The notes beneath the pieces are model-generated. The model saw only the letters and a list, made by a program, of their open reading frames with translations. It was not told where the DNA came from and did no database searches. Shown piece by piece: positions 3,801-49,802 of a DNA stretch of 64,000 nt (the first letter of the stretch is position 1; each line of letters opens with the position of its first letter). A program made the translations under genes and the position numbers. The DNA is from Psammoneis japonica (Eukaryota): NCBI GenBank assembly GCA_008632985.1, contig QPGO01000108.1, forward strand, positions 176,476-240,475, read 5' to 3'.

Positions 3801-4329
3801 ACAAGCTCAAGTTGGTGACATGGTTCATTTTTGAGAACAACCATGCAAATTTGCCTTGTCAATTCTCTCTTTCATTGTCTGCGCGTGCTGCAGACAATTG
3901 ATTTGTGCTGTTTTCAATGTGGGTTTCCATCAACAATGACTTTCTGTGCAGCAAGTTCTCATTCTCTGCTTCCCCTTCCTTGCATTTGCTCTGTTGTTTC
4001 CCTTCATTTGCCCACTGTCTTTCACTGTCTGTGTGGCATCATCTCACTGTTTTTTGCTGTGCTGGTGTCATGTCATGCTCCAATTGGCACCCATGCTCTG
4101 ATCAGTGTCCAGCTGCCATGATGCATCTTTCAACAATGGCCAGCTTCTGTGCGTGTTGTTTGTCACCCATGGGATGCCATGCCAATGCCTGCCATGAGAA
4201 AGCAGAGAAGTCATGGGCTTCACATGTTTGGTTTGGCAACTGTTTCACAATTGTGCTGCTTGCTGTTGTTGGGCACTGCAAGGCTGATCTCATGGTGGCA
4301 TGGCAATGTTGTCACCAACAGCAACAGCA

Positions 4330-7839: not shown

Positions 7840-7968
7840 TGGACAGACAGACAGACAGACAGACAGATGGACAGATGGACAGATGGACAGATTGACAGAT
7901 GGACAGATGGACAGATTGACAGACAGACAGACTGACTGATTGACTGACTGACTGACTGACTGACTGAC
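7840..7968 (+). repeat. Compound tetranucleotide microsatellite (GACA/GATG/GATT/GACT)n
   Basis: Directly visible. Confidence 0.95.
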
Positions 7969-9217
7969 AATGACTGTTTTTTGTTCTGTCCTGCAAAATG
8001 TCCTGCTGAGAGATTTCGGCATGTGGGAAGAATGAAAGAGGTGGCCGCCAGAGGCGGCCCAGAAGAATAAACTGAAAAGGAGAAAAAGGAGAAGAGAGAG
8101 AGGAAAAGAAGGAAAAAGGAGAAAAAGGGAAGATGTTGCAGGGCTGTCAACTTGCGGCCCTTGGCTGGGCTTCTGCCTGCAAAGCAGCTTGTCTGTGACT
8201 TGAGGTGCTGTGGTTTTACATGCTTGACAGCAAAGCTCCCACAGCACGCTGGAGAACTGTGCAGTTGTGTGGCATCTTTTGTGAGGAGTGTTTTGCTGCC
8301 AGCCCATCATGGCTTTTTGGGCAGCCTGTTTTCCAAGCCTTGCCCTGCCAGCTTTGTGGCCACTGCTGCGGATCTGTGTCTTCTTTGTTCTCCAAAATTC
8401 AATGCACACTTTGGCGGGTTTGGCCCCACTGTGTTCAAACAATTCTCTGAAGTTTCCAATCGAGAAGATGCAGTGTCATCCTCTTCAAAAGATTTTTGCA
8501 AAGATCCCTGGCAGCAAGCACTGGCCTTCCCCACCCATGCTTTCAGAAGTGCCTGTCTTGACAAATTCACAGCATCTCTCCCAAAGCATCTGTGGATGCT
8601 GCGCCCAAATTTTGGCCTCATGCATCACAAAATCTTGAGAGAATTTGCGAGATTCACCCCATCACGCACCGCCACCTTTGTGGATTTCCAGTGCAGCCAT
8701 GGCTTCTGCAGCAGGCTGTTGACAAACATGCAAAGCAAGTTCCCACTGGGACCTCAAATTGACCTGCAGCCTTCTTCATTCTGGCTGCACCCTCCCTGCT
8801 TGAATTCTGGGTGGCCAGTTGAGCAAAACCTGGCTCTGTCTGTGTTTTTCAGTCCATGTTTCTGGCTTTGTCACATGTGGTGCAAAGTGCCCTCAGGAAA
8901 ATGCTTGTGGTTGTGCTTGCCCAATGCTGTCCCATCAGCCAGTGCCTTGTGGCGCAGCCCAGTGCTTTGCTTGCTGGTCTGGTGTCTTCAAGAAGCAAAC
9001 CACACACCCCATTCTTGCCCAAAGAGGGGGGGGCAATCAGACCGATGCACATGCCTGAAAGACACCCTGTGTCATCAGGAGGTTCCACGATGAGAAAACG
9101 AGTGAGACGAATGAACAACACCACATCAGCTGCAACGTGTGAAAAAGTGGGAGCAAGATTTTGCGAGCGTGTCTTGGTTGTTGCGAGTGTTGCGCGAAGC
9201 CTTGTTGATGTCGAATC

Positions 9218-9385: not shown

Positions 9386-11010
9386 GCTCTGGTGTGTTTT
9401 TTATGCTTCTGACTTGAATTTTTCCGTACGCAATGACTGTGAGATCTGCGACAATTCCCACTGCAACTGCCAATGGGCAAGCATGCATTTCAGTCAGAGA
9501 TGGGCTGACATGCACAGCAAGAAATCCAAGACTGCACTCCCACCTGCCCTGCACAACTCTCAAGAAAGACAAGACATTGTTCAAGAGCTGTGCTGTGCAA
9601 AAAAATGTTGAAAGTTGTTGAGTGGGTGGCCCAACAGCTGCACTGCAAAATGATGCAAAATGCCACCCAAGTCGTGCACCAAAAGAACACACAGCGCATC
9701 TTAAAAAATGTCAATGTCACAGCTCAGCAGCAGCGCAAGGTCCCACCCAGAGCCAGAGCATGCTGCCTGTCCTTCCCTTGTTTTGGACTGCAACTGTGAC
9801 CTGTGCTTTAGATGACAGCCCTTTTTTGCCATTGTTGGCATGGAAAATGATGTCAAGACCATTGTTGCATGTGGCATTGCTTGCTTTGTGCCAGCAAAAC
9901 CTGTGGCAACAGGGCCGCTGTCTCTTTGGGGCACTGCAAGCAACAGGCAGACAGGAGCTCAGATGAAATGAACAACAAATCCAGCCATGGTCACCAAGAA
10001 TTGGTGCAATCCAGCAGAAACATGCAACGCAGCAATCAACAGGAAATCCAGAATTGCACATTGATTGACTGTGCGGCCCGCTGTTTTGGCAATGCGCAAC
10101 AGTGACAGGCTCGCTCAAACCCACTGCATGAAATTCTGCATGGGAGGGACACCATGGATGAGCAATTTGACCGGTGTTTGTCCGCCATCCAATTCCTCTG
10201 TGGTTTTTGTGGAACAAAAAAGAAACCACCAACCAGGGTGACTGCACTGTTGCGATGGCATCAATGTTGAATGCAGAGCAGCGGGCATCATGCTGGTCAC
10301 ACCTGGAGTGCTCATTCAAGCACTGTTGCATGTGGCATGAAGATTGCCACCTGAATTGTTCAATTGTGTTGAGCATTTTGCTTTTCCTGCTCTCATGCAT
10401 TTTCACATCCATTTTGGCAAAAAGCATGGAGGCACCAAGCAAGCTGTTCTTGCCAGCAGAAGCAACAATTGGAGGGCACCTGCTGCTGTGACTGTGCAGG
10501 TGATCAGGCATGGAGGCAACTCAGCTGAAGCCAAACCTGCCAGTGTCCTTCTTGTCCTCCCTCCATCCACAAAGACAAAAAGAAAGTGGTGGGGAAAATG
10601 ATGGCAGACACAAACTGCAGTGGGTGCAGAGAGGAACAGACAGAGGAGAACAGATGGCAAAAGCAGAGCCAAGAATGTTTGTCCAATGGTTGGGTCCATT
10701 GAAGCAGATGTGTTTTCTTCCAAGGTGTCCAGTGCACTCATCACTTGTGTGGATGGCTTGCACCAATCACCAACTCCTGCTGATGAAAGCCACTCCTCAT
10801 GCAGGGAACAATGTTTGCTCCAACAAGGACATCTCTGCCAAGTCCCAGACACAGATGCTCTCCAGGATTTTCAGATGCTCCGCCTCTGTTTGGTGCTGCA
10901 TTGAGCACAGCAGAGATCACTGCTGTCAACAGATGATCAACCACATCTTCAAGATGAAATTGGTCCATGGATTTCAGTCATTTTCCTGCATCTGCAACTT
11001 GCAAAACAAA

Positions 11011-11523
11011 ACAAAACCTGGTTTCAAGTGCTGTCACACCTTTGTCCAGCAACAAAGGAACACTCACATCAACACTTGTCAGTGCCACAACAGAAGAGGT
11101 GCTTTCACCTGATGGAGCAAAGCACTTGATTGGCCAATGGAGACAAAGAAGGTTGTTGAGGACCAATGGGTGTGGGTGCAAGCAGTTCGGCGGAGCATTG
11201 TCACAGTGATTGTTGGCAGTTGGAACTTGTTGCTGACGCACGCAGAACTTCTGCTGGAATCCATGTGGCAAATTTCTTGAGTCTGCAGAAAATTACAAAA
11301 AAGATCAATGAGCATGTGAACCATGAGGAGTCAAGATCAGTCATTTTCCACTTGGAAACATCACTTGACACGCTGAGACAAGGGTGCGCCATCACTGTGG
11401 TTGAAATGGGCAGAATGGTTTCAGGAGACCCAGCACAGTGCCATCTGAGAAAGGCCACATCAGCACAAGAAGGTGCACAGAAACACGTGCAGGGGCTGCT
11501 GGTGCACATTTGCCTCAAAAAGT
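11011..11523. mobile_element. TIR-less long-TSD element, copy A (short, apparently internally deleted)
   Basis: Both ends are homologous to copies B and C. Flanked by GCAACTTGCAAAACAAA (10994-11010) and GAAACTTGCAGAACAAA (11524-11540). Confidence 0.7.
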
Positions 11524-13115
11524 GAAACTTGCAGAACAAACGAGACATCCCTGACCCCAACCCTTGCTGCTGGCAAGACTGCCCAGCATCAAGCAATGAG
11601 ACAGGGGTGGATCACTTCAGGTCAGAGTTCAGTGCAATGAAAGAGGAACTTGGAAACTTCAACAATGACTTTTAAGAGGCTGGTCACCAGAGAAGCTGGA
11701 TGATGATTCTGCCTTTTCTGGCTCTTCACGTCTTTCCCGCTCCCCGACAGCAGCGGACACTTTTTCAATCTGGCAGCTTCAGGTGAGATGGGTTTCCTTG
11801 CTGCCTCAGCCACAGATTTGCATGGCGACAATGACTTGCACTGCAAGCAGCTGGGTTGCATGAATTGAGGCTTGCTTCAAGGATTGAGCAAAAAGACACT
11901 TTGGTTGCAGATGCCACGTGCTCATGATCAGCTCTGTGCGGCCTGCCGCACAGCTCATGATTTGCACTTCAAAACAACACAGTGTCAGTTTCCCTAACTT
12001 GCATGCACCCACACACACTCTGTGTGTTGCTGCTGCACACACTGCCCCTTGCTGCAACTTCATTTGGCAGCTGGTTGGTTGGCGGAAACCTCGTCTGAGC
12101 CCAAGCGAATCTGGGAGCAAGCTTGGCGCTCATCCGTGAGACAATGACAATTTTTCCCTGGTGCCACCTGACTCCTCCGAGGAGCTTTCAAACATGGCCT
12201 CCTTTCCACAGTTTGTCCAATGAGGCATTGCAACTTCTCATCCGATCGAACTGCTTCAGAAGGCGGTCAAAAAGCACCGACACGGCAGAGGTGCATAAAT
12301 CGTCTGTTGTCGTTCGCACATGTTTATGACCAGAACATGTCCTGCCGTACCGCATACCTCTAGTAGCTAGGCCCTATGCCCTACAGTACAGTGTGGTGCG
12401 GTAAACCTTCATCACAACGATGATGATTCCATCCAACGTGCGCGCCGGCACCTCCCTCGTTGAAGCACGAGCACTGTAAAGTGATAGTTCAGTAAAGTGA
12501 TAGTACCGTAAAGTGACAGTAGAAGCAATAGCGTTTATACGCATTTATAGCCATAAATGATACATTAAAATTTTAAAAAATATCGAGCATAAGAAATTCA
12601 AAAGAGAGATTTTGAAATCCCGTCTCCTCAATTTTTTGGTCACAATCTGTTTTTCAGAGAGAAATACAGCATGAGAAAATTTGCCGAGGCTTCTTCATGC
12701 ATAATGAAGTTCTGTGTGCAATCTTGGTGCAATCAGCTCCATCTTCACTTTTCCTTTTATTGGTCCATGTATGAGATGATTTCAGATTGAGAGGCAGGAT
12801 TCTCCGCTGGAGAACAGGATTTGCTGTTGGGGCCTGCTCACAATTCACATTCCAACATCTAGCGACAACAGCAATAGCAACATTCTGCAGTTAAAGGATT
12901 TGCTTCTCAGCACCTCCCCTTGCAAGCAATACCACGCGGTTCACATTGGAGGTGAGAAGCATGTGTCAACTGGTTTGAAGGTAACAACTTCGCAGTCTTG
13001 TGCACGGCAACTGTCGATTTGCTCCCACGTTGTATGCAGCACTCCCGCTAACCGGTGGTGCTTTGTTATCTCACCTGTCCAAATGACTCAATGTAGCTCT
13101 TCCCACCAACATAAA

Positions 13116-14400
13116 ATGATTTTCGGAACTGCTTTCCTTTCGCTCCTGCTCGGCTCCTCCGTGGTTGCCGAGTCGACGCAAAGTCGGCTCCCTCGACGCT
13201 TGGGCTTGGGCTTGTTCAAGCGATGCGTCAGTGACCACGCTGGCCTTCGAACTGCTGTGGATGGAACCGGTTCAACGATTTGGGTATGTCCTCAGAATGA
13301 CATCGCATTCACTGAACAAATCATCATCAACAGGAGCGTCAACATTATGTGCAAGAAAGGCCTTCTAGGCAGCCTGTTAGGCTGGGAGTGTATCATGAAG
13401 AATGTCGCTACTCCTGCGGCAAACACCCGCCTCTTCACCATTGCCTCTGGGACTGTTCATTTCAGAGACCTTACACTTCAGGATGGCCGGTCGGATCAGG
13501 GAGGTGCCATGTTGGTTCAAAAGTCAGCAATGGCGGTGAAGACGGAGAATTGCGTCTTTAAAAACAATATGGCCGATCAGGCTGGTGATGCGGTAAGTCT
13601 CGATTGATCTCTTCAAGCTTTCTTTCCATGTATCAGAAGAACATCGAGACTAATTTACTCCCAGGCTGGCGGTGCTATGTACAGTTTTGCAGATTTTACG
13701 TCGGTTTCTGATAGATTCGAGGGAAACTTGAGCAATGACGTGAGTTTTCCCTTGGTACTGTTTGTGTGGTTTTTCACAATGAGATTCACGCGTTATTATT
13801 GCATCCACATCTGTTTATTCAGCGTGCTGGAGCCTTACGCGTTCACGGCGCGATAGCGACTCTCACAGACGCCGTTTTCTTCAACAACATGGCGGTGAGT
13901 CCTCACAGTATGAAAATATAATTTTCGCATGCCTCCATGACACTAGCTGACGCCCTTCTTGTTGATGTTGTCGTACTTTGAACAATTAAATGTTTTACTG
14001 CCTGCAATTAATAGGGCGGATCTGCCGGAGCAGCCGACGTTACAGAGGGCAAGTTGAGTTTGGTTCGTGGATCGTTCAATTGTAACACTGCAGGGGTGAG
14101 TAGAGGCGTGAACTGTGATTTGTTGCTCTTGTAACTGATTGTTTAGCTCACTATTCCGGCTTTTATGCGGCATCTCATTTGCATTTGAAGGCTCTTGATG
14201 GCAGTGATAACGTCTTTATCTGGGGGCAGTCAGTCCGTGGTAGTGAGCTAATCTGTCAGCAAAACACTGGGTTCTGCCCTACGGTTGCAAATGAAGGAAT
14301 TGTCGCGAGCGGCATTACTGCGGCGCCAGCACCCTCTCCCTGTGGCCTTCCTGATGCAGGTTTCTGTGGACCTTGTCCCGACCCTCCTAGTGGCATGTAA
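13116..14400 (+). CDS. Secreted right-handed beta-helix (pectin-lyase-like/Pmp-type GGA...FxxN repeat) protein, 5 exons
   Basis: Signal peptide MIFGTAFLSLLLGSSVVAES. Exons 13116-13592, 13665-13739, 13823-13894, 14015-14095, 14191-14400 with GT-AG introns splice in frame. Motifs GGAM..FKNNMA, AGGAM..FEGN, AGAL..FFNNMA, AGAA..FNCNTA. Confidence 0.85.
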
Positions 14401-17400
14401 TGAAGAAGTGCATGCCTGGGCATGTGATTAATGACATTTTATAATTCATGATTCCTGAACCACTTAATGCAAAAACAGAATACCTAGCACAGGCAGTTGA
14501 CGATTGACACAAGGGGTCATGAGAAGGAGGGGAAATGCATGACAATTGGTGCGGAACACGGTGCGTTTTTGCAAAAGTGCAGTAGAAATGAAAGCATGGC
14601 ACTGTCCCCTCGTGACACAGAGAGCCATGCTCATAATGTGAAACATCATTCAGTGGTGGGCTCACCTGTCCATGCATTGTGTGGCTGCAAATGAAGGGGA
14701 AAAACCAAATCTAAATTTAAAGTGCTGTCTCACTCCTTTGCCAGCTGGGCTGGCACCGGGTAACCCACACTTCCAGTGCACAGCCAAGTGCAGCAGAAGT
14801 TGAAATGGACCAGCCAGAATGGGCATCACTTTCTGGTGATGCCCCACCAAAGCAACTTGCACCATGAGCACTTTGCCTTCTTGATGCTTTCCTTTGGACA
14901 CACAGTTCAACCATGGCAACCCAATTTAGGATCCTAGAAGCAGCAAAAGTCAAATGGTTTTCAGCTGAATTCAGCAACACTTCTGCCCTTGGCTGAGTGG
15001 TCTTGTCATCTGTTGCAAATGGCTGTGAGTTCTGCTTGTGTGTGCTTGCGCTGAGATGATTTTCCAGTGTCAGCATCATGCCCATGTTCTGTTGCATTGT
15101 GTTTTCCCCACAGTTCCCACTGTGATTTCTAGGTGTGGGTGCCCATCTGCACTGCCCATGTTGGAGGAAGATGGTTTTTCTTGTGATGCTGCTCCAACAA
15201 TCCAGTTTTGTTGAGATGTGTTGCTTGAAAGGTGTTCCACAAAGTTGAATGTTGACCACCAAAAACTTGGTGCCAACCATCATTGGTCTGTTCTTGCCAT
15301 GACAGATGGAGCACAGGGAGAGTGTTGGTGTCATGCACCATCACATCTTGAAACCACATTTCCATGGACATCAACACAAACAGAAAATTGTGCAAAGGAG
15401 GCATTGTGTCAACATGGTCACAGTGCTTGCAGAAACCATGCAGAAAATTCTGCCTCCAAGCTTTGTTGTCAGGGCATCTGAGGATGTGATCTTGACCCTC
15501 CATTGGATGCTCAAATGCCAGGCAGTGATGAGGTTGCACTGGACTTCATTGGTTTGCAATCTCATTCATGGGAGAAGCTTGTGAATCAGCTTCACAGTGG
15601 ACACATGTTTTTTTTTAAATGTGCCGACAAGAGAGGCATGCGTGAACCAGTCAATCTCATTGGTGATGGACTCTTCATGCTGACTGCTCTGTTTTAGATG
15701 CACCCCAGCAATGCAGGGGCCATGGCGGCACAACAAACTGTTGACTTGGGTCCAACAGCAACTGTGCCATCCGTGACCCTGAAATGTGCCTGACAGTCAG
15801 GGAGCAGAAAAGCTTCTGTCACATCAGGTGGGTGCTGCTGGCCTTGATGCCAACATCTGCCAGTTCATCAGCTCTGATGTTCACCTTGGCATTGAGAGCC
15901 ATTGACTTGAGTCATCCAGCAGCAACTGTTCCATCTGTGAGACTGAAATGTGCCTGACAGTCAGGGAGTGGAAGAACTTTTGTTGCATCAGATGGATGCT
16001 GGCCTTGATGCCAACCCGCCACTTTGCCAGCTCTGACATTAACCTTGGCATTGAGATGGAGAGAGGCAATGGGAGCACGTCAATCTTGGCGTCTTTTTGC
16101 CTGTTCAGTGGTGGGAGCTTGACCAGGTGAGGATGAGTGGAGGAGAGATTCAAAGGTGATGGATGTCTGGAAGATTTTGTTGATGACATCTCAGTCTGAC
16201 ATTGAGACATTGGCAGCATGGTGTCAAAGGTTGAAATTGTTCTCTGCATTCTTAGAAGGATCAATGGAAGGGTGAGAGCCAGACAAACAGAGGAGAACTT
16301 CAACCAGAGCCCTGTTGTCACACCAGTTTTTGACACACCTGCATGGCAACATGCCTTGCAGAATTCAAGGAGGTGACCCACAAAACACAAAAGGGAAAGG
16401 ACACCATGTGCCTCCACATGACAGGAGGACAGCACACATCCAAATGCTGGGCTGTCTGTGACAGACCATCCAAACATGGCACTCTGATGATGCACTGATC
16501 CATTGCTGCCAGCATTGAGCCACTCTACAACAAAGAGATCAATCAGGTCATGAAGGGGTGGGTGAAAAACTGTCTTGGAAAACAAGGCCAACTTCCACAC
16601 CGGCAAGGCTTGAAGACATTCTTTGAATGAGTCAGGGAGAAAAAGGGGAAGCTCAACATTCAATTTCAATCACTGTGGGTGGAATTGCCAGTGACCCTTT
16701 GAAATCTGAGAAGATCTCTGCTGGAAACAACTCTTTGGATGGTGTTGGGAGGGTTTCAAGTTGATGCACTGAAGTCACCTTTTCATTTTGAACCAAGAAA
16801 ACATCAAATCCCAAGGGAGAGCAAACATGTGGACATGACTCAGCTGGAGACTGACATGCTGCTGCCAGCATGTGCATTCTGGAAGGTGGGGTTGGCCAAT
16901 CTCCCAAAGGAGCATGCAACCAGGTGAAGTCAGGGCAACACAGCATTTCACAGAGGCAGATCCAGGGACCCCAAGCATGGTGGCAACGTTTCTCCTGTTT
17001 GACATTGTCAAGGGTGCTGACGCTGCTTGCAAAAGTTAGATCACCACAGATCTTGGATTTGTCTGGAGCCAGTCCATTGGCAAGTGCTGTGCCTGACACT
17101 GCAAGGACCTTGATGAGGCAGAGGTGGCAGCAATTGATCCACCTCATTTCCAAGGAAGAGAAAGCTGCAGATTCCAGCACCAAATCCATCAGGCGTGGGT
17201 TGTTGTCACATTGGAGAGGCAACATGCTGGCATTCAACAGCGCCATTGTTCTGCCAATGCAGTTGAGAAAGGATCAAACAGAAGCAAACCACAGCAACTC
17301 ATTGCAAGGGTGTGGGGTGCTCACAACTTGCAAGAAACTGACACCAGCTTGTGGTTGCAATTGATTGTTGCATGCAACAGCAATGCACACAGCAGCGCAG

Positions 17401-18140
17401 GGTTGGTCATCTGCAAGCAGCTGCTGAGTTGTTGAAGTTAAGCCACACCCTGCTCTGCATCAAGGGACCAAAAACTGCCACCACCAAGAGACTGTGGGCT
17501 GCACAGCATGAGGTGCTTGGTGTTTCTGTTGCAGCCACACTTTGCAAAGACAACTTGCGCTGCACATTGTTGAATCTGCAGGAGAGCTTTGGTGGCAAAG
17601 TGAGAACCACCAAAGGACAAAAGCAGCCCATGGCAAGCAGCAGGTGCAGCAGCATCTCCAGGACTTGGATCAGTCCAGCAGAGTGGATCAAACAAACGAG
17701 GCCTTCCCATCACTCTCACTTGGAGCTGCTTCTTGAAAGTGCCTGCGGGAGAACTGCAATGGCTGAGAGTTTTGTGGGGAGCACAGGGAGACAACGAGTG
17801 CTGCACCTTGAGGTGGAGCAATCAGCACAGAAATTTTCCACACATGGGTCTTGGTTGTGTGGGTGGAGGCTGGGTTCATTGCACTCAGAGAACTCCTGTT
17901 CGGCGGTGTGGAAGGAACATTCAGGCAGCAGCTCCAGTTTGTGTCCACTTGCATGGAGAAGATCACACAAGAGCTGGCTGGGTCATGCTGCAATTTTGTG
18001 GGCAAGCTCTTCAGCATGGGGTTGAGGGAATGCATGAAAGTCGTTTGCTTGTTTGGACATGTCATCCACCACATGCCCATGGGCACAGATGTTCAGTTGA
18101 TGAGAGCCATCAGGAGATTGTTCAAAGAATGTGCCACAGG

Positions 18141-18378
18141 CAGGCTTGGGGTTTTAGGGGGGAGGGTTTCAGCAAAAAGGGGAATCCCCCAGATGAAAGA
18201 AGCGGGGGCCCAGTTTTAGGTGAGCACTGTAGAACTGTGCTCTCAGTGGCACACAGTGCGCACGTCGTCCCACAACGCATGCTGCGTGGCACATGCACAG
18301 TGACAGCAGCTCACAACCCATGTCTTCAGACAAAATGAAGTGGGCCCCCCCTGCTCCCCCCTAAAACCCTGAGCCCAG
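18141..18378. mobile_element. MITE (hAT-like) inserted in the LINE RT
   Basis: ~24-bp imperfect TIRs CAGGCTTGGGGTTTTAGGGGGGAG / CTCCCCCCTAAAACCCTGAGCCCA; 8-bp flanking direct repeat GCCACAGG (18133-18140, 18379-18386). Confidence 0.75.
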
Positions 18379-19129
18379 GCCACAGGCCTTGGAGTCAAAC
18401 ATGTCAAAATGAAAGCTGCACAAGTTGTTCCAGCAGAAAAGAGAGTTGCCACTTCCTTGGCCAGTGCTGCAGATTGGGGATTCCCGGCTGTGAGAGTGCA
18501 AGGCTTTGGACAATCCCAAGAGGGTCAGCAACCAGCAACAAGCAAGATGGGTGGTGGAGATTGTGGTTGTCACAGCAAAGGGATCCATGCCTGGACTGAC
18601 AGATGAAATTGCCATGAGCACTGGAAGACTCTGATTGCAGCAAGAGGGGCAGTTGTCATTGCTTGCAATCAGGGTCTTCTTGAAACTCTGGAGATCTTGA
18701 GCATTGACACTTCTAAAAATGCTGGAGTTTGGGCACAAAGGAAGGCATGAGTGCTGTGTGTGCCGGGTTGAAAAGACAATGTCACTCCATGCATGTTTTG
18801 CACCAAAGCTTGCCAGTTGACACTTGTCATCAGGTGAAAGTCTGCCTTGCAGATGTTGGTCACACACAGCCAAAGTGTCTTGTTGTTTCCTGGTTCCTTG
18901 AAGATCATGATGCTGACAATGTTGTGTCATCAATCAAAGGAGTGTCCCTCCTGCTTGATGGTGCAGTTCAAAAGGTTCAAGCAGATGGTCTGCAGTGTTT
19001 CCTGGATTCTGTCTGATTCCAGATGTTTGCAAGTCGGACTCCCTTGTGCGTCCTTGGCCAAAGAATGAAGATGATTCACGCACATTGCCTTCCAATGTTT
19101 AAAATGAAGACCAGACTTGACAGAAGCAG

Positions 19130-19499
19130 AGGTTGGCTCTGACCACAACTTGAATTTTCCATGGATGTCATCTGTTGTGAGGAAGTTTGACACCAAAATG
19201 GGGGTGTATCATCACAGGTGTTTGACAAGCAATGCTGCAGCTTCAGTCATGCCAAGTGTTTCACAATCACCATTGAGAATGAGCTCAGCCACAATTGTGC
19301 TGCCCTCACAACCCAGGTTGGCTCTGACCACAACTTGAATTTTCCATGGATGTCATCTGTTGTGAGGAAGTTTGACACCAAAATGGGGGTGCATCATCAC
19401 AGGTGTTTGACAAGCAATGCTGCAGCTTCAGTCATGCCAAGTGTTTCACAATCACCATTGAGAATGAGCTCAGCCACAATTGTGTTGCCCTCACAACCC
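19130..19499 (+). repeat. Near-perfect 185-bp tandem duplication within the LINE
   Basis: 19130-19314 vs 19315-19499; I see two differences, including TA (19207) vs CA (19392). Confidence 0.9.
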
Positions 19500-19860
19500 A
19501 GGTCAATTGACAGGTGAGGAGCAGCCTGAGGAGTGCCATGGGCCTGGCCAAAAGCTTTTGATTGTGGGCTTTCAAAGCAGCAGCCACATCTTCTGGGGTG
19601 TCAACAGTTGCCCCCAATCATCACATGTTTTCAGGTCAGACACAGCGTTTTCTGGAACCTGGATGTTGCCAACACTGGAGCTGTGTTTGTTTGCAAATGC
19701 ACTGACCTTGCAAAAGACTCAGGCAGTCTCTTTTGCACATCATGAGTTTCATGGGATTTTTGCTTCTTGCTTGGTCACAGTGGGGGTGCCTTCCAGGTCT
19801 AACTCGCAACTCGGCAATGCGTGCATCTTGTTCCTTTTTGTGGTGGTGCAGGCTGTCTCA

Positions 19861-20891
19861 AAAAAAAAATCCAACTTTAAGTGCCATTGCACCTTTGCCC
19901 AGCAACACCGGCGCCGGCCAACCCACACTTCCAGCACACCCCATGAGAGAGGTGCAGCAGAAGATTGTGCGATCAGTTGGTCAACGCGCCGCTTTGCAGC
20001 GATGCGCACCAGAGACAAAAGGTCAAGAAAAAATTGCACCAGAATGAGATTGTTGCTTTCTTTTGGAGAGGATTTAATGCACCCAAACTGCCACAGCAAA
20101 GGACAATCAAGTTAAGTAGAGAATTCAAAGTCAGCGCAAACTCTGAGAGAAAATCTTTGCTTCTGAGGGAGAATCTTGTCTTCAACAAAGACTGATTGAA
20201 TTTCACAATTGCATGGACCAGAACAACAGTGTGCAGTTCACTGCTCGGAACAGTGATCTTGGCAAGCCAGCAAGTGGAACAGGGGATGTTTGGGACTTGC
20301 AAGGATGAAATGGGAAGTCTTGGTGATGTGACAAGAAGGTCGTTGGAAGAAACATTGTTCTCACGTAGAATTGACACTGAATCTTGCGTAGAAAAGCCGA
20401 TCCACGCAGCAAATGGACGGTCGTCAGGTGATGCCAATGGTTTGTCCATGCAAACACTCGCAGGCACCACAACAGGGACAGCACTTTCACCAAATGAGGT
20501 GAAGGACTTGAGCAGCCAGCAAGAGCAAAAGAAATTGTTGGGGGCTTTTGGGTGTGGTGGGAAGTTGATCGCATCGGAGACGCAATGACCATCGGTGCAT
20601 GTTTCTGAAGCGCACAGAATTTGCACTGGATTCTGTGTAGAAATCGCACCGAATCCACAAAAAATTGCCAAATGAGACAACAAGCATGCGAACCACAAGG
20701 TGTCAACGCCAGTCGATTTTCCACTGAAAATCATTGCACATCATGGAGATAAAAGGGTGCACCAATGGCAGAAGGGGCCAAAAGGTTGACAGGGGACCCA
20801 GCGAAACGCCATCTGAAGAGGGCGACATCAGCACGAGAGCACACGTAGAAACACACGCAGGGGCTGCTGGTGGGTGCTTGCGCAGAAAAGT
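19861..20891. mobile_element. TIR-less long-TSD element, copy B, inserted into LINE coding sequence
   Basis: Perfect 18-bp direct repeat GTGGTGCAGGCTGTCTCA at 19843-19860 and 20892-20909. The LINE frame (...WSPETACTT|TKRNK...) rejoins when the insert is removed. Confidence 0.85.
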
Positions 20892-23800
20892 GTGGTGCAG
20901 GCTGTCTCAGGTGACCACTTTGCACTCAGTTTGAGCCCTGTGGAGAGTGTCTTGACATTCATCCCTGGCAGATGGAAGAAGAAAGGAGTCTTGAATCTTG
21001 TGGTGCTCCCACACAATCTGCTCTCCAAAATGCACTCGATTCTTGAACATGGACAAAAGGTGGGACAGAATGAACACTTTTCATGGCAGGTTGGCTGGCT
21101 TGCAGAATCAAACAGTTTCTTGATGCTGTTGGCATCATTTGGCAGTCCATGGACAAGTTTGTGTCATGTGGTGCTCCAATTGTTCTGCAAGTGAATGATC
21201 TGGGTCATCTGAGGCAAGAAGAGCAGAGCTGTGCTCCAACACATTGGCCGATGCTGGCTTCCAAATGCACTGTGGCGCATGTTTTGGGGATTTTGCTTGA
21301 AGGGTCCAGTGAGCAGAACAGGGAACATCCACTGAAGAATTGCCAAAAAGAGCAGCTCAGCAGTGTCAAAGTCCACAAAAATGTGTGTGGTGATCTGACA
21401 ACACATGATGTCCAAACTGTTTGCACCCACATTGCAAGACAGCCTGAAGAGCACCTGGAGCAGCAAAGAGACACAATTGAAATGGAGAGATTCTTGGAAC
21501 AGGTGGCAAAATCCATGTCTTGCATTTGATGAAACATGACATTGAAAAGATCAAAACAAATGGCGGTGTTCCCAGGGTCAGGGATCAGTGCCGCAGTGAA
21601 AGTTGGCATTGAAGTCCCCAAAAAGGATGACTTCACAGTTTGGTTTGTCCAAAAAAGATTCAAGAACACAAGACACATTGGCACAGAAGGCTCTCTGGGC
21701 TTCTGGTTGAGTGCAACCCTGTTGTTGCAGTGAGCTGACCTGCTGAGCACAGGCTGCAATCTTTCCAGCAGCAGAAGAGTTGTCAGCACACACTTGACAA
21801 CATGACACAAACACAACTTGTTTGCCTTGCTTCCCATCAAAAATTTGAATCGACCACCATCCCAAAGGAAAAGTTTTTTGGTGCAATGACAGAAAGCCAC
21901 CAAATTGCATGAGATGGTGGCTGTGCCACATGGCTTGCATGGAGTCATCAACAGAATGGATGGTGCAGAAAAAGCAATTCAACCATGGTTGAGAGAATTC
22001 TGTGCAACAGATCAGCAGGGTTGGGAGATCTGGGGTTGAGCAGCATCCAAACAGGTTTCAAAAATGCCAACAATGTCTGCCTGAATCTTGTTGATGACCT
22101 GACACCAGGAATTGAAGTCACCACCAATTGAGTCAAAGGAACAACCATTTGCATTGACTGCATGGAAACAAGCAAGGGGTTGCCAACTTCATTGCTTGAC
22201 TTTGGATTTCAGCAGTCTGTGGTCTGAGGTGGAAGAAAATGCTGTCTGCCATCAAGGGTGCATGAGTCCATTGCACTGAGCAGCATCTTGCAACAAAGAG
22301 AATGTTTGCACTTGCAAGAAGGTCCCCTGCTGTGCAGTGGGAGAAATGTTGGTCAAAGGGGTGTCACCCCTCATGATGAGGCTGTGCTCCCTTCAAGGGA
22401 GGGCTGGGGGATGGGCGCAACATCTGCATCATTTGCCGTGGGCAAAGGAGATGACTTGGTTTGCCCATTAAAAATGCAACTCCGCTTGGGCTGCATCCAT
22501 CACAGAAATGTCAGGGGGCTCTTCTGTGGAAGCTCTAGCAGGGGTGATGGCTGGCTGTTTCTTGTGCAAGGGGGAGGAACAAGAGTCAGACTCAGGAAGC
22601 AGAAGCTGCTCTTGGATGAAGGCTTGGAGTTTTTGGGCCAAATCATTCATTTGTGTTTGGTGCTCTTTTTGTGGGTTGGCCATGGATTGCTGATGTTGCT
22701 CCTTGGCTTCAGCCCACCAGCTGTCATTGTCCAGTCCATGCAAACAATCTCCTGTTTTAGCTCAGCCACTTTGGAGGAATGGTCAGCAAGGTTTGGGGTT
22801 GCTGCAGCAGGAGAAGGTTCATTGGGTGATGAGCCAAGGGCCTGAGCAAACATTTTGAAGTGGTGAATGCCCACGTCAGTGGGAACCAGAGGGGCTTGAC
22901 TTTGCAAAGAGGAAGCAGGCAGAGCAGCTGCACAAAATTTCTGATGTGTCCAGGGAGCTCCAGCTGCAAATGCCAGCAGAAGTGATGGAGTTTGCAGTGT
23001 CTGACATTTCATTGGAGATTCCTGAAATCATTGGGTGGGGTTGACCTTGCTTGTGCCAGCAAGGCATCCTCTGGAAGATCATTCATCATGCTTTGGGGGG
23101 TCTGATTGAGGTGTGAGCAAACTTGCTTGAGATGTGTCTTGTGCACAAGGACATTGAAATGGAAAAAAGTGGTCTTCCTCTTGGAGGGGATGACATTGTG
23201 AATGCCATCAATGAGTTTGAGCTTGGGACAAAGATGAAAATTGACAGCTTTGGTGCAGCACAACAGGGGAATCACACAAGTCTTCACCGCAAGTTTGTGT
23301 TGGTGCTGAGTGGCCTTGTTGCATGCTTCACCTTCAGGTTGAGAATGATGCCAGTGGGAAAGGATCAAGAACCTGACCAAGGATGAGTTTTCAGGATCTC
23401 CAACAAGACATTCAGCACTGGCTTTGTCATGTGAAGTTTTCAACTGAGTGAAATTCTGCCCAGATTGAGCACTTGGCAGGAAAGGAGATCTTCTGGGGAA
23501 TGAGTCTGATTGGCAATTTTGCATGATGGCTGTTCCGCACAATGGCTTGGAGTTGCTTGATGACAACATCAGCAGAGTGGCATTTGGGGAGATGCTTGGT
23601 GATTTGCAGGACACACACAAGGTCTGTGGTGGTCTCATCCCATTCATGATGCTGCACACATGTGGAGTTGTCTTTGAAAGTCTTGTTGAGACAAAAGGAA
23701 TGTCTCCAACACTCCCCAAGAGCCCAGAGATTGCTGGAGGGTGCACTGGCAGCTGTTTGTCTGTGGCAACATGCATTTTCTTGCAATGTTTGCACCAAAA

Positions 23801-25821
23801 TGATGTTGACAATGACAGAATGTTGTCATTTGGCTGGGACATTGATCTTGTCACCAAATTGCCACTCTTCTTGCTCCTGGTTTTTTGCTTTTGCTGCACA
23901 CAGTTGATGTCTCTTGTCAACAAATGGAGCCCATGGACTCAGTGAGTCAGGGCAATGACTGTCAAGAAAAGGGTTGAAGTGTCTGCTGTGGCAAAAATGA
24001 CCATGACCAACACTTGCACCAAGGTTTTGATTCAATGAATTCCTCTCTGCAGTTGTGCATGCATTTGAACACAGTGCTTCTTGGTGAAGTGTTTGTCAAG
24101 CACAATGCACGCCAATCCTCATCAATCCAGGCCCCATGGCTTGAGTTGAGAACCCAACAGTGAGCAACCAGGAGCTTGCTTGACTCCACTTCACAACATT
24201 TTCTTTCATGTGGATGAAATCAAGCCAAGCACTTGCCAATCTTGTCACTCATCCAAAGCAATTCTGGGCACCACTGCAGCTGGCCATTGATGTGCAAATT
24301 GAGCTCCCTGCTTGTTTCTTCACCACTGGAGTCTGTCACCCAAGTGCTCAACTTGGGGGTCAAGGAACTGTCAAAACAGGCAAATGCACAGACATTGCCT
24401 CATTGAAGAAATGCTGGAATGCAGCTTGTTTTGGGTGTTGTCTTTGACCAGTGCCCTCCAAAAAGACCAGCAGTCCTCCACACATTGGTTTTGGGTTTCA
24501 TCTAGAAGTGGTGTCTGTGCATCATTTTTGAGTTTTGCCAACTTCAACCTCATTGTCAAGACCAACTCCCTTCCCCTTGAAATGCCAGAAGGCCCAGTCA
24601 ATCAACGTGTGCTTGCAAAGAGCCAACACAATGACAAGCCCCCCCCCTCCTTTCCTTTTGCTGCTCCTTGATGAGATGAAGCATCAGAGATGTCTTTTGC
24701 TGGTGGATGCCAGCAGCGCACCAATTGAGCAATGTGCAAATGCTTCATGGCCAAATGCACGACATTCTTTGCACCAGCAGAGTTGTGCTTGAGGTGGTGG
24801 CCTCAAAGATCAACACCATCCCAATGGACTGTCGCAATGAACCTTGCAGTCCTGTGACATCACCACCCAACACTTTTGTGGAAATGTGCACCCCACTGCA
24901 ATCTCACCCTTTGTGATCAAGCAGTTCTTGAGGCTTGCACACTTCATGGATGTCATTGATTCTTGGTGGTTTGGGTTGCTGTTTGCTGTCAGCCATTGGC
25001 TGTCAAAAATCATTGGCGCCACTCAGTTGTTGGTGATTCCAGACTTTTTTTTGTGGATCAGTTGGTCAACCAGCCAGTCTGTGTTTGCAAAATCAGGTTG
25101 ACACAACCTGAAAATGTGTCATCATTTTCAGACCATTGTGTTTCCATTTTCTTCTGCATGACACTCCCATGTGAAATTGGTTGAGACAGCCCTGGGAACA
25201 TCTGACTGGAGTGACAATTGTGGGCACTCTGTGTTTCCCTCCAAAACAGCCCTGTCACATGCAGCAATGCTCTTGCAGTCACTGCCAGCCAGCACCAGCC
25301 AGGGACATGTGAACATCTGACCTCTGGCACCAAGGGGTTACATGGCCCTTCTGTCACAGAGCAAGACTGCACAATGGTTGCAACACTTCCCATTCCCACC
25401 TCACACAAACCTTTTCTCCAACAACAACACCTCCCCCCCCCAGCCATGGTGGCACTTTAGAAAAAGTGCTGCTTGCAAGTTTGAGTGTGTCTGGTTGAGA
25501 GCTTTGCCTGGCTCTCTTGCAAAGCCACACACGTGAAAAGTGTGCGCCACTTGCCATGTTCTGAGGGCACTGCCAAGACACAAAGCTGGGTTGTTGAGCT
25601 GTGCCACACAAGAAAGTCAAACAAAACAGGAGAGTGGTGACTGCCACTGGCATTTTGAACAGACCCTGGCCAAGCCAAGTTGTCTTCATGTGTGGTGCAC
25701 TGGCCAGATTGGTTTTGAAAGGAGCTTTGTAAAGAGTGCCGCACGGCAAAGGAGTTTGCAAATTGCAGAGGGTCAAAAAGAGAGCACCCAAATTGCTCTT
25801 GACTTTGTTGCCAAAACAAAA

Positions 25822-27078
25822 AAAAACCCAAACCTGATTTAAAGTGCTGTTGCACCTTTGCCCAGCAACACCAGCGCCGGCCAACCCACACCTCCGGCAC
25901 ACCCTACAAGGGGTGTGGCAGAAGTGGATTCGATTGGCCTGAATTGGCGTCTCCCTGAGGAGACGTTGATGGAGACAGTTGGTGCAGAGAACATGACAAC
26001 ACTTGGAGTTTGCTGAGGCATTGCTGGTGACACACACATTGGCCACACCACCACCACAGAGGACAGTTGCATTTGGAAAAAATTTACACAGAAGCCACAA
26101 AGGAAGCCAAAAGGAAGTCAAAGGAAGAGCGCCAAACCACTGGCTGCACAGCTCATCAAGTGGGAAACCTCATTCAAACCTCAAAGAAATGAAACAACAG
26201 AAAGAGCACTGCATGTGACAGAGAGCTTGATTTGCCAGCAAATGAAGGAGATTTTGTCCAGGACTGGGAGATGAGAAATGGGAACAATTGATGATTCGAT
26301 GAGTTGGTCTCGGGAAAAACTCACACTTAGAAACTGTGCCGGATCTTGCGCAGACATGCCAATGCAAGCAGCAAATGAATGGCAGTCACTTGTCAAGCAG
26401 GAAACCTCATTCAGACCTAAAAGAAAAATGAAACAATGGAAAGACCACTGCATGTGGCAGAGAGCTTCATTTGCCAGCAAGTGAGGGAGGGTTTGTCCAG
26501 GACTGGGAGACAAGAAATGGGAGCACTTTTGATGATTCAACGAGTCAGTCATTGGGAAAGACATTTTTCCCATGCAGAAACCACACCGGATCTTGCACAG
26601 AAAAGCCAACACATGCAGCAAATGGATGGCAGTCACTTGTTGCCGAAGGGAGGCTCATGCTCACACTCGAAAGCATCACAACAGTGAAGGACTTGATTGG
26701 CCAATGGGAACAAAGAGAGTCATTGGAAACGGAAGAGCATGGGTGCAAGAAGCTTGGAGACTTGACAAAACATTCATTGGTGGGGTTTGCCAAGGCACAC
26801 AGAATTTGCACTGAAATCCGTGTAGAAAATTTCTTGGAGCTGCAGAAAACACCAAAAAAAATCAACGTGCATGCGACCCACAAAGAGTCAACGCCAATCA
26901 TTTTCCACTTGGCATCGTTGCTTGACATGCCAGAACAAAAGCACACCATTGATGGAAAGGGCCAGAATGGTCGTGGGAGACCCCCAGCAAAATGCTGTCT
27001 GAGAAAGGCAACATCAGTGCGAGAGCGCACGTGGGAACACATGCAGGGTTTCTTGGTGGGTGGCTGCCGCAGAATTGT
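25822..27078. mobile_element. TIR-less long-TSD element, copy C (with internal ~236-bp tandem duplication at about 26163-26640)
   Basis: Homologous to copy B end to end. Flanked by GACTTTG(TTG)CCAAAACAAAA (25801-25821) and GACTTTGCCAAAACAAAA (27079-27096). Confidence 0.8.
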
Positions 27079-27655
27079 GACTTTGCCAAAACAAAATGAG
27101 CAACAGGCCTGAATTTGTGACCATGTGGGATTTTTGGCTTGGCAACTGGAGATGGGGGTGCACATGGCTGGTCCAGTGCCAGCTGTTGTTGTTGTCTCTG
27201 TTTTTTTTTGTGGCAACTGCCTGAACCCAGCACAGCACAGCTGGTGCTGCAGGGTTCAGATGCACTTGTGAGTGTGGGCATCTTTAAGCACAGGATTCAG
27301 TGGCCAAGTGGGAGGCTCGTGAGCCCCTCCTCCTGTGACTGTCTCTCATCTGAAAGCCTGTCTCTTGCAGCACTTTGTTGCCCCTCTTGTATTTGGCATG
27401 CCAACTATACAAAGATGCTTTCAGCACACTCCAATTGATGATCATGCTGTTTTCGCAAAAGGGTGAGAAACACGTGCATTGGTGTGTGTGTGTGTGTGTC
27501 TGTCTCCGCAGTGTCTGAGTGTCTGCATTCAGCATGGGTAATTGAGCTCCGTCTCCGAGCGACGGGATTTGATCAATCTCATGCGTTTTGTGTTCACGGC
27601 GCTCAGAAAAGAACAGCAATGGCGTCGGAATGGAGTCAAATGTTTGAATCTTAGC

Positions 27656-29399: not shown

Positions 29400-29642
29400 A
29401 GTTTTGTACATAGCTGGATTGCTCGAGATAGCTTATTGCAACGCAAATGAGAGTTCCATGGATACAAAGAAAGAGAATGTAGTAAAGAAGACATACCCCA
29501 CAAAATGGACTTTTGTGAAGAAGCTTTATCCTTCGGAGGCAAGCCGAAATTGTCAGAGCTCAGAAATTCCATTATAGCAGCGTTGTTATATTCTCTAACC
29601 TTTTAGGACATATCATACTGGGAGGCTCACTTTGTCACTCCG

Positions 29643-31257
29643 TTAAAAGAACTCAATGTTATCAAGATCCAGGCTTCCACTTGCCCCCTTCTCGGTAAAT
29701 CCAAAAACCAACGACCCAATGTCAGTCATGTCAGTCGGTCCGAATGGGCAGGCTTCAACATAGTCGTCCATGTCTGAAAGAGTACTTGTTGCTGCGTCCA
29801 ATCGGTCGACACTGGCACATTGACGTGCATCTCGTTCTTCTTTTGTTGTCCGAGACACGGTGATGCAGTGTTCGCCTTGATGGTCAATTTCACACTCTCA
29901 ACACCATCGCTGCGAATGTCGAAACGAACACCGGTAGCACCGCTCATATCGCGATATGCCGAAGCAATCAATAGAGAAAAAGCCGCGTACTCGTATCTGG
30001 ATTGTCAAGGGTTACAAAAGAGGAGAAAGAATTAGTTTTCAAAAAGAACGCGTTTCAGCTTTGACAATCATCACCAAGTGCTTACAGGCAGATGGTATTC
30101 TCAACAACCGAGAAGTAAAACCTTAGGTACTTGTTATTGCCGCGAAACCTTAGTTCAGTGCTGCCCTTGCTTGCAGGTGACTGGTCGCCGCTGCAGCTTT
30201 CCTGAGAGTCGTGAGCAACGAAGTTTTCGCCGCCAAACACGTTGACACCAAGGTTTTCGGCCGTGTAGGTTTCAAATGTTTCAATCGGCGGAAGCGTAGG
30301 TTGATTAGGACCACCTCCCGTGCACGTCAGGGTGCTGTCTTCCCACCCATCGTCGGGGAAAGTCTCTGCGGTGCTCCAATCATCGCCTGCTTCGTTGAAA
30401 GGTGTGATGCGAACCCAGTCCACTTCCATGTCGGTAGTGTCAAAATTGGGTGTACCAGCCCAACCACGGGGAAACCAAGCCCCTATCCAGAAACGAGACG
30501 CCAGAGTAGGCACGTACTTTGTAATTACGCGCGTAAGGGTACCGTCCACAAAGAACTCCACCCGCTGTGCTTCCGTGTCACTTCCCGTGTGCCAGTCGAA
30601 CCGATAAGTGTGAAATTCACCATCGTTCTGAGCACTTTCCATTTTCACTGGAGAAGCTAAGTGTTCGTCGTCGTTCTCTCCCACCCATGAATTCATGAGT
30701 GCACGGTCAAACGAAATGTCCCTTATCGCAGGATCCGGGCGCCCTGGAAATTCCAAATCAATTTCGTGATTAATTGCATAGTAGCCTTTTTTAGCCCCAA
30801 CAGGTTTTGCAATATACTGCTCATCGCCCTCATAGTACTCTTGGTAATGAAAAGTCCAAAAGGCGCTTGCAACACCCATTTCGGGTGCAATGCGAGCCCT
30901 CACCTCGTACCGGCCAGACGCAAAATATCGCTCCGTGGCAACAGCGGCGCCCACACGAAAGCCGTCCTCTCGCGGACAAAGGTTTTTGTTGATTCCTTTC
31001 AGACTACCGCTGTAGCTGTTTCCGTGAGCCTCGAGACGAAGCTTGCCGTTGCCGACGAAAACGTTTTCGGGCATGACTCCTCCATTGTAGGACAAGGTGC
31101 CGCTGACTTGGCCACCCCAGTTCTTCTTTGCCTTTTTCCATTCTGGTGATAGATCGGTTCCATCAAAGCCATCAAAAAGACCATCGCCAGCTTGCCACTC
31201 TGCGAGGGCTACACCAAACAAGGAAGTAAATGCAACCACTGTCCCTGGAAGCTTCAT
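29643..31257 (-). CDS. Secreted GH16 glycoside hydrolase with C-terminal CBM/CIA30-like domain, paralog 1 (intron 29997-30085; 1-nt frameshift ~29780)
   Basis: Signal peptide MKLPGTVVAFTSLFGVALA; catalytic HEIDLEFPG (ExDxE); FHTYRFDW; collinear with the paralog at 49803-51421. Confidence 0.88.
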
Positions 31258-49260: not shown

Positions 49261-49802
49261 CGGCAAGAAATGTGTTTTTTTACATTTCATTTCATGGAAC
49301 TAATGGAAAGCATTGGAATCTTCAGCACGGACCGTCACAAGATGCATCATGCACACCGCCTGTCAAATCTTAATGAAGCTAAGTCTTTTGAGGACCATTG
49401 GATTCCCGAGTCTGCATCGGATTACTTCGACTGTTGCTTTGACTGGGCGTGTCAACACGTTTTGCCGATGGGGAAACTGTCTCGTTTACTGGGGTCCTTC
49501 CTTGTGAGCCTTACTATTGCGGCTCTGGTCATTGGCGTAACTCTTGGGTCGTCGGTAATTATTGCAAAACTTTTGTAGGGCTAGGGAAGCACATCGTAGC
49601 AAACCGAAGCTGCATTACCTTTGCATGTGCAGTAAAGAAAGTAGTGTTCCATATCGATTGCTCGTGATAAAGTTTTGTACATTCCTAGAGAATGCTAGAG
49701 AAGGCCCGTAGGGCTAACTAGTTTAGAGAAGAGTAAGGACACCAGTAGCTATAGAGTCAAAGGTCACAATCGACACATCACAGAGAGGTGTTACGATCAT
49801 TG

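Follow-up and report, generated by a model that had tools for sequence, protein, structure and literature searches.

Two context-specific transitions recorded in a fossil LINE and its repeat block in the diatom Psammoneis japonica

A dead retrotransposon in the nuclear genome of the diatom Psammoneis japonica has very probably been rewritten, together with the block of repeats around it, by two context-specific transitions that acted after integration and ran close to saturation: TpA to TpG or CpA, and CpG to TpG or CpA. The element, a non-long-terminal-repeat retrotransposon or long interspersed nuclear element (LINE), lies on the minus strand of a 64,000-nt stretch of contig QPGO01000108.1 (positions 176,476 to 240,475 of the forward strand, assembly GCA_008632985.1). 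This whole stretch is called the window below, and all coordinates follow its own numbering. The codons of the LINE and the composition of its surroundings record the direction of the change, its dependence on the neighbouring base, its symmetry between strands, its action at the DNA level after integration, its regional targeting and the separable time courses of the two losses.

Identity of the LINE and direction of change

The LINE was recognised through its relatives. A phmmer search with the 190-aa open reading frame (ORF) at 18361–18933(−) against a library of 1.84 billion representative proteins returned 66 proteins at E ≤ 1e-3 (best 1e-7), which are metagenomic and only ~30–35% identical to the fossil. 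Among 18 of these relatives scanned with Pfam, RVT_1 was found in six, two of them above the curated cut-off, and Exo_endo_phos likewise in six; RNase_H matches in relatives P0008 and P0038 (21.8 and 20.4 bits) fell below the cut-off of 25.8, and a zf-RVT match in relative P0051 (at 1709–1748) was also sub-threshold. Mapped onto the window with tblastn, the 66 relatives align colinearly from ~21870 to 14912, with joint E-values down to ~1e-34 to 1e-36, and have no matches in the rest of the window. The best relative, P0023, is spread over 12 successive colinear high-scoring segment pairs (HSPs) with eight changes of reading frame between them, as calculated from the tblastn coordinates. These matches place the LINE at ~14912–22160, longer than the 15450–21900 proposed in an earlier note on this DNA, which had been made from the letters alone; the limit at the 5′ end, near 22160, is estimated from the frame-0 translation.

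Judged by these alignments, the stretch is a dead LINE with remnants of an endonuclease and a reverse transcriptase, a putative RNase H remnant and a C-terminal region (Table 1), and its domain order and motifs match those of the 66 relatives. The matches to the endonuclease part, from relatives P0060 and P0037, are weak but colinear (tblastn E = 2e-5 and 4e-4), and its translation contains ...DIVGIFET... and ...ILFGDFNANF..., which we take to be endonuclease motifs. Pfam assigned no credible family to the LINE's own ORFs (14 on the minus strand and 15 further, 12 of these on the plus strand), and an Rfam scan of the whole window matched nothing. Neither a poly(A) tail nor the LINE's own target duplication was found at 14400–15100, which is expected because the copy is old and eroded and which leaves the domain evidence unaffected. 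The LINE is low-copy, with a uniform contig depth of ~59–70 in one public sequencing run. A class named 'LINE/Ambal' has been annotated in a diatom genome (PMC12803021).

The five degenerate strings to which the earlier note had drawn attention each occur once on the minus strand: SSCHVEAHG at 16429–16403, NCCHLCL at 17135–17115 and, inside the reverse transcriptase remnant, PICSTGQG at 18477–18454, SCCNQ at 18645–18631 and WLCVTNICKAD at 18872–18840. Their intact counterparts, as given in the note, are borne out by the consensus of the relatives in the tblastn alignments. For SSYRAEAYG the consensus is (T/S)-S-Y-R-A-E-(A/G)-Y-G, from the four relatives aligned over the RNase H region, all with S-Y-R-A-E-x-Y-G; for NYCRLYL it is N-Y-C-R-L-Y-L (10–11 relatives), for PIYGTGQG P-I-(Y/F/H)-G-T-G-Q-G (63 relatives), for RLRVIxxYEAD R-L-R-V-I-H-(L/I)-Y-E-A-D (30 relatives) and for SCYDR S-C-Y-D-R (54–55 relatives).

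Several lines of evidence describe how the LINE departed from this ancestral state. First, the change has a direction. Alignment of the 66 relatives to the fossil gave 348 conserved columns (at least six relatives covering, at least 60% agreement), of which the fossil matches 225. None of 14 Tyr is kept, eight having become Cys, two His, two Phe, one Asp and one TGA. Arg is kept in four of 20 columns, all four as AGA/AGG, and the 16 lost Arg columns now read Gln (three), Cys (three), His (three), Trp (two), TGA (two), Lys, Val and Asn (one each). Other residues are mostly preserved, as the earlier note had said of the remaining codons: Leu in 40 of 57 columns, Gly in 29 of 38, Ser in 18 of 21, Gln in 14 of 16, Trp in 13 of 16, Phe in nine of 11 and Cys in six of seven. 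Retention of Ile is low (five of 14, with three Thr and one Met), as expected for ATA codons. The outcome is similar in a relaxed set of 823 columns, both for Tyr (none of 32 kept; 17 Cys, four His, four Phe) and for Arg (seven of 60 kept; 13 His, 11 Gln, five Trp, five Cys, three stops), and TGA accounts for 29 of the 31 stops in the aligned LINE columns.

As a control, the procedure was repeated with 15 long intact relatives standing in for the fossil; one yielded no columns, and the remaining 14 kept 5351 of 6746 columns (79.3%). Tyr was kept in 244 of 329 of their columns, with no change to Cys and six to His, and Arg in 384 of 465, with 22 changes to Cys, Trp, His or Gln. The fossil differs from these intact relatives at a Fisher p of ~1e-12 both for Tyr>Cys/His and for Arg>Cys/Trp/His/Gln/stop. 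Cys or His is thus not the ordinary state of the Tyr positions, a possibility that the earlier note had left standing against its own proposal.

Second, the change depends on context. Of the 123 conserved columns at which the fossil deviates, 44 can be explained by transitions in TA or CG context alone, 18 by other transitions, and 61 require a transversion, so the statement in the earlier note that nearly every deviation was of the TA or CG kind was too strong. Intact relatives deviate at 20.7% of columns, from which ~72 deviations in 348 columns are expected through ordinary family divergence; the excess of ~51 in the fossil is roughly the amount that the two context-specific changes explain. 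In a neighbour-swap control, the required neighbouring base was exchanged and the explainable deviations were recounted. On their own, A>G/T>C changes account for 17 deviations when the context is TA, as against two in AA, none in CA and three in GA; C>T/G>A changes on their own account for 27 when it is CG, as against none in CA, two in CC and five in CT. The proposal that the element once contained TA and was inactivated by two context-specific transitions therefore holds, and the notion that substitutions elsewhere are equally frequent does not agree with the zero to five transitions found in each other context.

The survivors further delimit the target. The 70 TA steps left in purged DNA are scattered and nearly all have the form Y-TA-R, where Y is a pyrimidine and R a purine (TTTAAG, TCTAAA, TCTAGA and the like). 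Relative to blocks of normal composition, TA is retained at 0.43 in TTAA, 0.245 in CTAA and 0.15 in CTAG, and at zero in ATAT and GTAC; counted per strand, residual TA is 0.160 for T-A-A, 0.092 for T-A-G, 0.036 for T-A-C and 0.019 for T-A-T. With moderate confidence, the preferred target is an A that follows a T and precedes a pyrimidine (T-A-Y). CG has survived best in GCGC, CCGG and CCGC and least in TCGA, ACGG and ACGA.

Regional purging, resident DNA and the order of the losses

Third, the change is regional. The interval 15450–21900 contains 24 TA (observed/expected ratio, o/e, 0.06), 77 CG (0.20), 693 TG (1.71) and 733 CA (1.85); over the whole window, o/e is 0.31 for TA and 0.58 for CG. 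Segmentation by composition, together with 500-bp counts, divides the window into purged and normal blocks. Per kb, the purged blocks (28.4 kb in all) hold 2.7 TA, 8.7 CG, 114.7 TG and 111.5 CA, and the normal blocks (35.6 kb) hold 34.7, 53.8, 75.8 and 75.7, respectively, with all pyrimidine–purine (YpR) steps together at 237.5 in purged and 240.0 in normal DNA. The deficit of 77.1 TA+CG per kb is matched by a gain of 74.7 TG+CA per kb (226.2 in purged versus 151.5 in normal blocks), and GC content is ~48% in both. Purged DNA has a TA o/e of 0.02–0.07 and a TG/CA o/e of 1.7–2.0; the purging amounts to ~92% for TA and 84% for CG and is equal on both strands. Within the LINE itself, without its inserts (5992 bp), 14 TA and 37 CG remain, and the near equality of TG (695) and CA (685) indicates that both strands were affected.

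The borders between purged and normal DNA are sharp, falling within a few hundred bases, and their normal side holds ordinary host genes. Pfam recognises GH16, an MFS transporter, a UvrD-like helicase and Rpb4 in the normal blocks, as well as a topoisomerase I C-terminus, a short-chain dehydrogenase and a zeaxanthin epoxidase. Pfam gave a single match, at chance level, among the 58 ORFs of 110 aa or longer in the purged blocks other than that of the LINE; within purged DNA, only the LINE and internal repeats have been seen to be mobile or repeated.

Fourth, the change took place in resident DNA. If an ancestral TA or CG is resolved independently in each copy of a repeat, double sites are expected at which one copy has TG and the other CA. 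Repeat pairs in purged blocks have such double sites at 11 of 152, seven of 42, four of 23 and 15 of 84 mismatched columns, and further pairs at 15 of 106, 15 of 196, three of 14 and three of eight; a control pair of host GH16 paralogues, of the same 80% identity, has three in 314. Double sites between repeats within the purged blocks imply that the change occurred in the DNA after integration.

Fifth, a 1031-bp repeat nested in the LINE shows that the process went on. The repeat sits between the two copies of a perfect 18-bp target duplication, the direct repeat GTGGTGCAGGCTGTCTCA at 19843–19860 and 20892–20909, and it interrupts the colinearity of relative P0023 between residues 104 and 110. 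It belongs to a high-copy family (contig depth 2000–6000 versus ~60 for the LINE, that is, tens of copies), of which older copies lie at 26473–27074, 25817–25924 and 11228–11504. With 8.8 TA and 34.3 CG per kb (19838–20857), it has lost ~75% of its TA but only ~36% of its CG. Among 40 listed differences between reads and window in this repeat, 18 have TA (eight) or CG (ten) in the reads and TG/CA in the window, and five run in the reverse direction; six of eight TA>TG/CA differences from other copies fall in T-A-Y context. TA loss continued once the LINE had been purged, since this later-inserted repeat lost TA.

The same interval bears on the order of the two losses. Sub-blocks that are low in TA but normal in CG occur at 19838–20857 and, within the purged block 31657–36080, at 32421–32647 and 33358–33895, whereas no segment of the window is low in CG but normal in TA. 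This suggests that TA loss was faster or earlier than CG loss, and it shows that the two are separable.

Features and neighbouring genes of the window

The positions of the LINE remnants, the insertions and duplications inside the LINE and the purged blocks are collected in Table 1.

Table 1. Remnants, inserts, duplications and purged blocks in the window (P numbers denote relatives of the LINE protein)
Feature	Position	Strand	Basis or remarks
AP-endonuclease (apurinic/apyrimidinic endonuclease) remnant	21481–22160	−	Exo_endo_phos parts of P0060 and P0037 map to 21868–21481
Reverse transcriptase remnant	17785–19320	−	phmmer E = 1e-7; relatives with RVT_1; P0023 residues 202–626
Conserved post-reverse-transcriptase region with NCCHLCL	16839–17794	−	P0023 residues 624–943, P0029 residues 285–650
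RNase H remnant with SSCHVEAHG, putative	16337–16630	−	P0023 1010–1113, P0038 816–912, P0030 1261–1362
Conserved C-terminal region of LINE protein	14912–15793	−	P0023 1247–1524, P0029 927–1187, P0020 915–1084, P0051 1732–1896
Nested 1031-bp repeat	19861–20891		Between endonuclease and reverse transcriptase; 18-bp target duplication
MITE-like 237-bp insert in reverse transcriptase	18142–18378		9-bp target duplication, 22-nt inverted ends
Young tandem duplication, 185 bp × 2	19130–19503		98–99% identity
Older tandem duplication, ~160 bp × 2	15741–16056		81% identity, four TG-versus-CA double sites
Purged block containing the LINE	14652–27406		Composition segmentation, 500-bp counts
Other purged blocks	1533–9045, 9477–12128, 31657–36080, 47272–49221, 60202–61126		Segmentation

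Besides the nested repeat, which has a run of ten A at its low-coordinate end and for which a protein family search found none, the LINE carries an insert resembling a miniature inverted-repeat transposable element (MITE). The two copies of its target duplication lie at 18133–18141 and 18379–18387, the alignments of the relatives skip it (18385 to 18141), and it retains four TA and six CG in its 237 bp. In both target duplications, the 18-bp and the 9-bp one, the two copies are identical. The copies of the young 185-bp duplication have just two differences, one of which is TA versus TG in T-A-C context (19207 versus 19392), which points to a very recent TA>TG change or else to a back-mutation. 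Given the frame changes, the two insertions and the two duplications, reverting TG/CA alone would not restore one long ORF.

Elsewhere in the purged DNA, a tandem array of ~189-bp units at 4640–5765 (~5–6 copies, 70–75% matches) has copies that differ mainly at TG-versus-CA double sites. Because the stops left in the purged blocks are almost only TGA, chance yields open frames of 300 aa and longer on both strands there, and these should not be taken for genes. An island of normal composition, 2.5 kb in length (12129–14651), separates two purged blocks and contains a 275-aa frame (12780–13607) with a hydrophobic N-terminal stretch, for which Pfam had no match.

Among the host genes, the GH16-family paralogues at 29642–31220 and 49802–51384, 80% identical in DNA, each adjoin a purged block. 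Two very long overlapping open frames at 38908–46844 (+), of 1399 and 1285 aa and with UvrD-like helicase domains in the first, may belong to one giant gene that is broken by a frameshift or short intron near 43000. The zeaxanthin epoxidase at 51779–53739 (+) lies in two frames with a break near 52690 that is probably a short intron; a fragment of it is 85–90% identical to proteins of Cylindrotheca, Cyclotella, Thalassiosira, Stephanodiscus, Corethron and other diatoms, which identifies the host as a diatom. Part of its N-terminus resembles the motif at which the signal peptides of heterokont plastid proteins are cleaved.

Mechanism, rival explanations and implications

The two transitions may be accounted for as follows. 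CpG>TpG/CpA would most likely reflect deamination of 5-methylcytosine (5mC) in a methylated, silenced transposon block. TpA>TpG/CpA is an A>G change at an A with a 5′ T and preferably a 3′ pyrimidine, most likely the work of a targeted activity that deaminates adenine in DNA to hypoxanthine; alternatively, a modified thymine mispairing with G, rather than deamination of adenine, could underlie the TpA loss. Between them, the two transitions converted Tyr (TAY) to Cys or His and Arg (CGN) to Cys, Trp, stop, His or Gln, and they eliminated nearly all TAA and TAG stop codons, with GC content unchanged. Such a mutating process may well have a defensive role.

A comparable process has been observed in the chlorarachniophyte Bigelowiella natans. 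Of the 231 mutations that mutation-accumulation lines gathered in two integrated viral regions, 230 were A>G/T>C, all of them at TpA (Mettrop et al., bioRxiv 10.64898/2026.01.13.699255, 2026); according to the same preprint, reverse transcriptase (RT), endonuclease-RT and DDE domains are over-represented among low-TpA coding sequences of B. natans, and an ADAT2-like adenine deaminase was proposed to be responsible. As there, A:T>G:C at TpA gives TpG or CpA depending on the strand and leaves TpA-depleted, CpA+TpG-enriched sequence, and foreign or repeat DNA is hit within regional borders (10.64898/2026.01.13.699255). Unlike B. natans, the host here is a diatom and hence a stramenopile; TA is near saturation (o/e 0.02–0.07), compared with a rho of 0.45 in the nucleocytoplasmic large DNA virus (NCLDV) region of B. 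natans; the T-A-Y preference is not discussed in the main text of the preprint; and what we have is a historical footprint, whereas new mutations were observed in B. natans (10.64898/2026.01.13.699255).

A number of points weigh against two post-integration transitions of this kind. A transversion is required in 61 of the 123 deviations, about the number expected from ordinary divergence. Ancestral codons were taken from the amino-acid consensus of distantly matching relatives (~30–35% identity), and the choice among them favours the simplest path, a bias that the neighbour-swap control limits and does not remove. In the relaxed column set, Arg>His/Gln (24) exceeds Arg>Cys/Trp/stop (13), possibly through alignment-score bias. 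The sequencing run used for comparison probably comes from the same sample as the assembly and its library type is unrecorded, so it is not fully independent. The transposon nature of the purged blocks other than that of the LINE is indicated by their repeats, with no Pfam match. CpG is lost here in the same blocks as TpA, whereas B. natans has no CpG component, the main text of the preprint being silent on CpG (10.64898/2026.01.13.699255). Finally, methylation as the source of CpG loss and an adenine deaminase as the source of TpA loss are both chemistries that we infer from their products.

The two losses have common block borders and leave the summed YpR count conserved, features that would also suit one repeat-directed deaminase or repair pathway acting on A in TpA and on C in CpG as one defence system. 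Enzymes of the ADAT2 type with deaminating activity on A as well as C in DNA are cited in the preprint on B. natans (10.64898/2026.01.13.699255), and diatoms carry DNMT4, a relative of RID, a factor in fungal repeat-induced point mutation (RIP) (PMC9998398). A single process is nevertheless unlikely: the three sub-blocks named above lost TA yet kept CG, and the converse is absent; the flank preferences are unlike, T-A-Y for TA versus C-G-A / T-C-G for CG; and the B. natans lines mutate at TpA only (10.64898/2026.01.13.699255).

Editing of RNA before integration, in which an ADAR-like A>I activity that favours a 5′ U would have hyperedited the LINE transcript ahead of its reverse transcription, is very improbable. 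ADAR usually prefers an upstream U, as stated in the Discussion of the preprint (10.64898/2026.01.13.699255), and Tyr>Cys, which corresponds to A>G on the sense strand, outnumbers Tyr>His by 17 to 4. This excess of Cys, however, arises because of the T-A-Y preference, and editing leaves the CpG loss unexplained. TG and CA are equally abundant in the LINE, the purged state extends over 28.4 kb and takes in unrelated repeats, tandem arrays and flanking DNA, tandem duplicates that arose in place have diverged at TG-versus-CA double sites, and the repeat that was inserted into the LINE later is likewise depleted of TA.

We attach similarly little credence to a sequencing or assembly artefact, by which modified bases in repeat DNA would be miscalled and CG and TA read as TG/CA. 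The signature does sit on exactly those dinucleotides that are able to carry symmetric modifications, and the comparison run has no recorded library type. However, contigs of depth ~60 built from exact 31-letter words of that run cover the low-copy parts of the LINE (14800–19905 and 20844–22300) and differ from them at five letters, which suggests accurate reads. The LINE also has its eight frame changes between 12 HSPs, target-duplicated insertions and many transversions; partial miscalls would not give so complete and strand-equal a purging, and the host genes on the same contig read through cleanly.

That the family was always poor in TA and CG, by native composition or selection, as might follow for example from a foreign source or from evasion of a host nuclease, is scarcely credible: the genic DNA of the window is mildly TA-poor too (o/e ~0.5–0.6), but Tyr and Arg of catalytic motifs are replaced by residues exactly one transition away, two conserved Arg columns are TGA stops and the protein cannot be functional, both TA (o/e 0.73) and CG (o/e 1.31) are at normal levels in the metagenomic contig that encodes L001, the one partial relative returned by a metagenome scan with P0023, and TA and CG are still present in other copies of the nested repeat. 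GC-biased gene conversion was rejected, being not TpA-specific and leaving CpG in place.

Two context-specific transitions in resident DNA, the reading that we favour, share features with three further systems. Like fungal RIP, they are dinucleotide-context transitions in DNA, regional in extent, that give transposons missense and stop codons. RIP changes C to T mainly at CpA, so TpA becomes enriched. The outcome here is the opposite: where RIP enriches TpA and depletes CpA/TpG, TpA has been erased (o/e 0.02–0.07) and CpA/TpG enriched (1.7–2.0), and the main novel component is A>G. The CG>TG/CA change, with a CpG o/e of 0.1–0.3 in repeat blocks only, is like the CpG decay of methylated transposons in vertebrates and plants, which accounts for only one half of the signature and leaves TpA as it is. 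Diatom transposons are methylated at 5mC (PMC9998398, PMC2806351), and DNMT3, DNMT4, DNMT5 and DNMT6 are present in diatoms (PMC9998398); the available part of PMC2806351 does not mention such a TpA/CpG pattern. Like the editing of retroelements by animal ADAR and APOBEC enzymes, the process would be a deaminase-driven hypermutation of selfish elements. Those enzymes act on RNA or single-stranded cDNA and are strand-asymmetric; here, unlike there, both strands of resident genomic DNA were changed after integration. A literature search for the signature in diatoms turned up the B. natans preprint alone and no account of TpA purging in a diatom, although subscription journals were largely uncovered and absence is therefore unproven. 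What appears to be new is that TpA hypermutation occurs in a diatom, that it is coupled there with CpG loss and that it favours T-A-Y.

If the pattern is general in this diatom, a repeat-targeting mutator has rewritten nearly half of a 64-kb stretch and spared genes a few hundred bases away. TpA hypermutation would then extend from a rhizarian alga to the stramenopiles and reach saturation on retrotransposons, with a testable candidate motif (T-A-Y) and rate order (TA loss before CG loss). Generality would also explain why purged repeats escape Pfam and repeat annotation, and TA-free DNA calls for caution in annotation, since stops that are almost only TGA give rise to long spurious ORFs. Diatoms can be transformed, so the responsible enzyme would be experimentally tractable.

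More tentatively, diatoms may possess a repeat- or heterochromatin-directed, T-A-Y-specific defence that deaminates adenine in DNA, related in mechanism to that of Bigelowiella and possibly old within the stramenopiles, alveolates and Rhizaria (SAR); together with deamination of 5mC, it would erase both self-complementary pyrimidine–purine steps. If this were so, invading DNA would be left without Tyr codons, without TATA-like or AATAAA-like signals and almost without TAA and TAG, and the dinucleotide outcome of the diatom defence would mirror that of fungal RIP.

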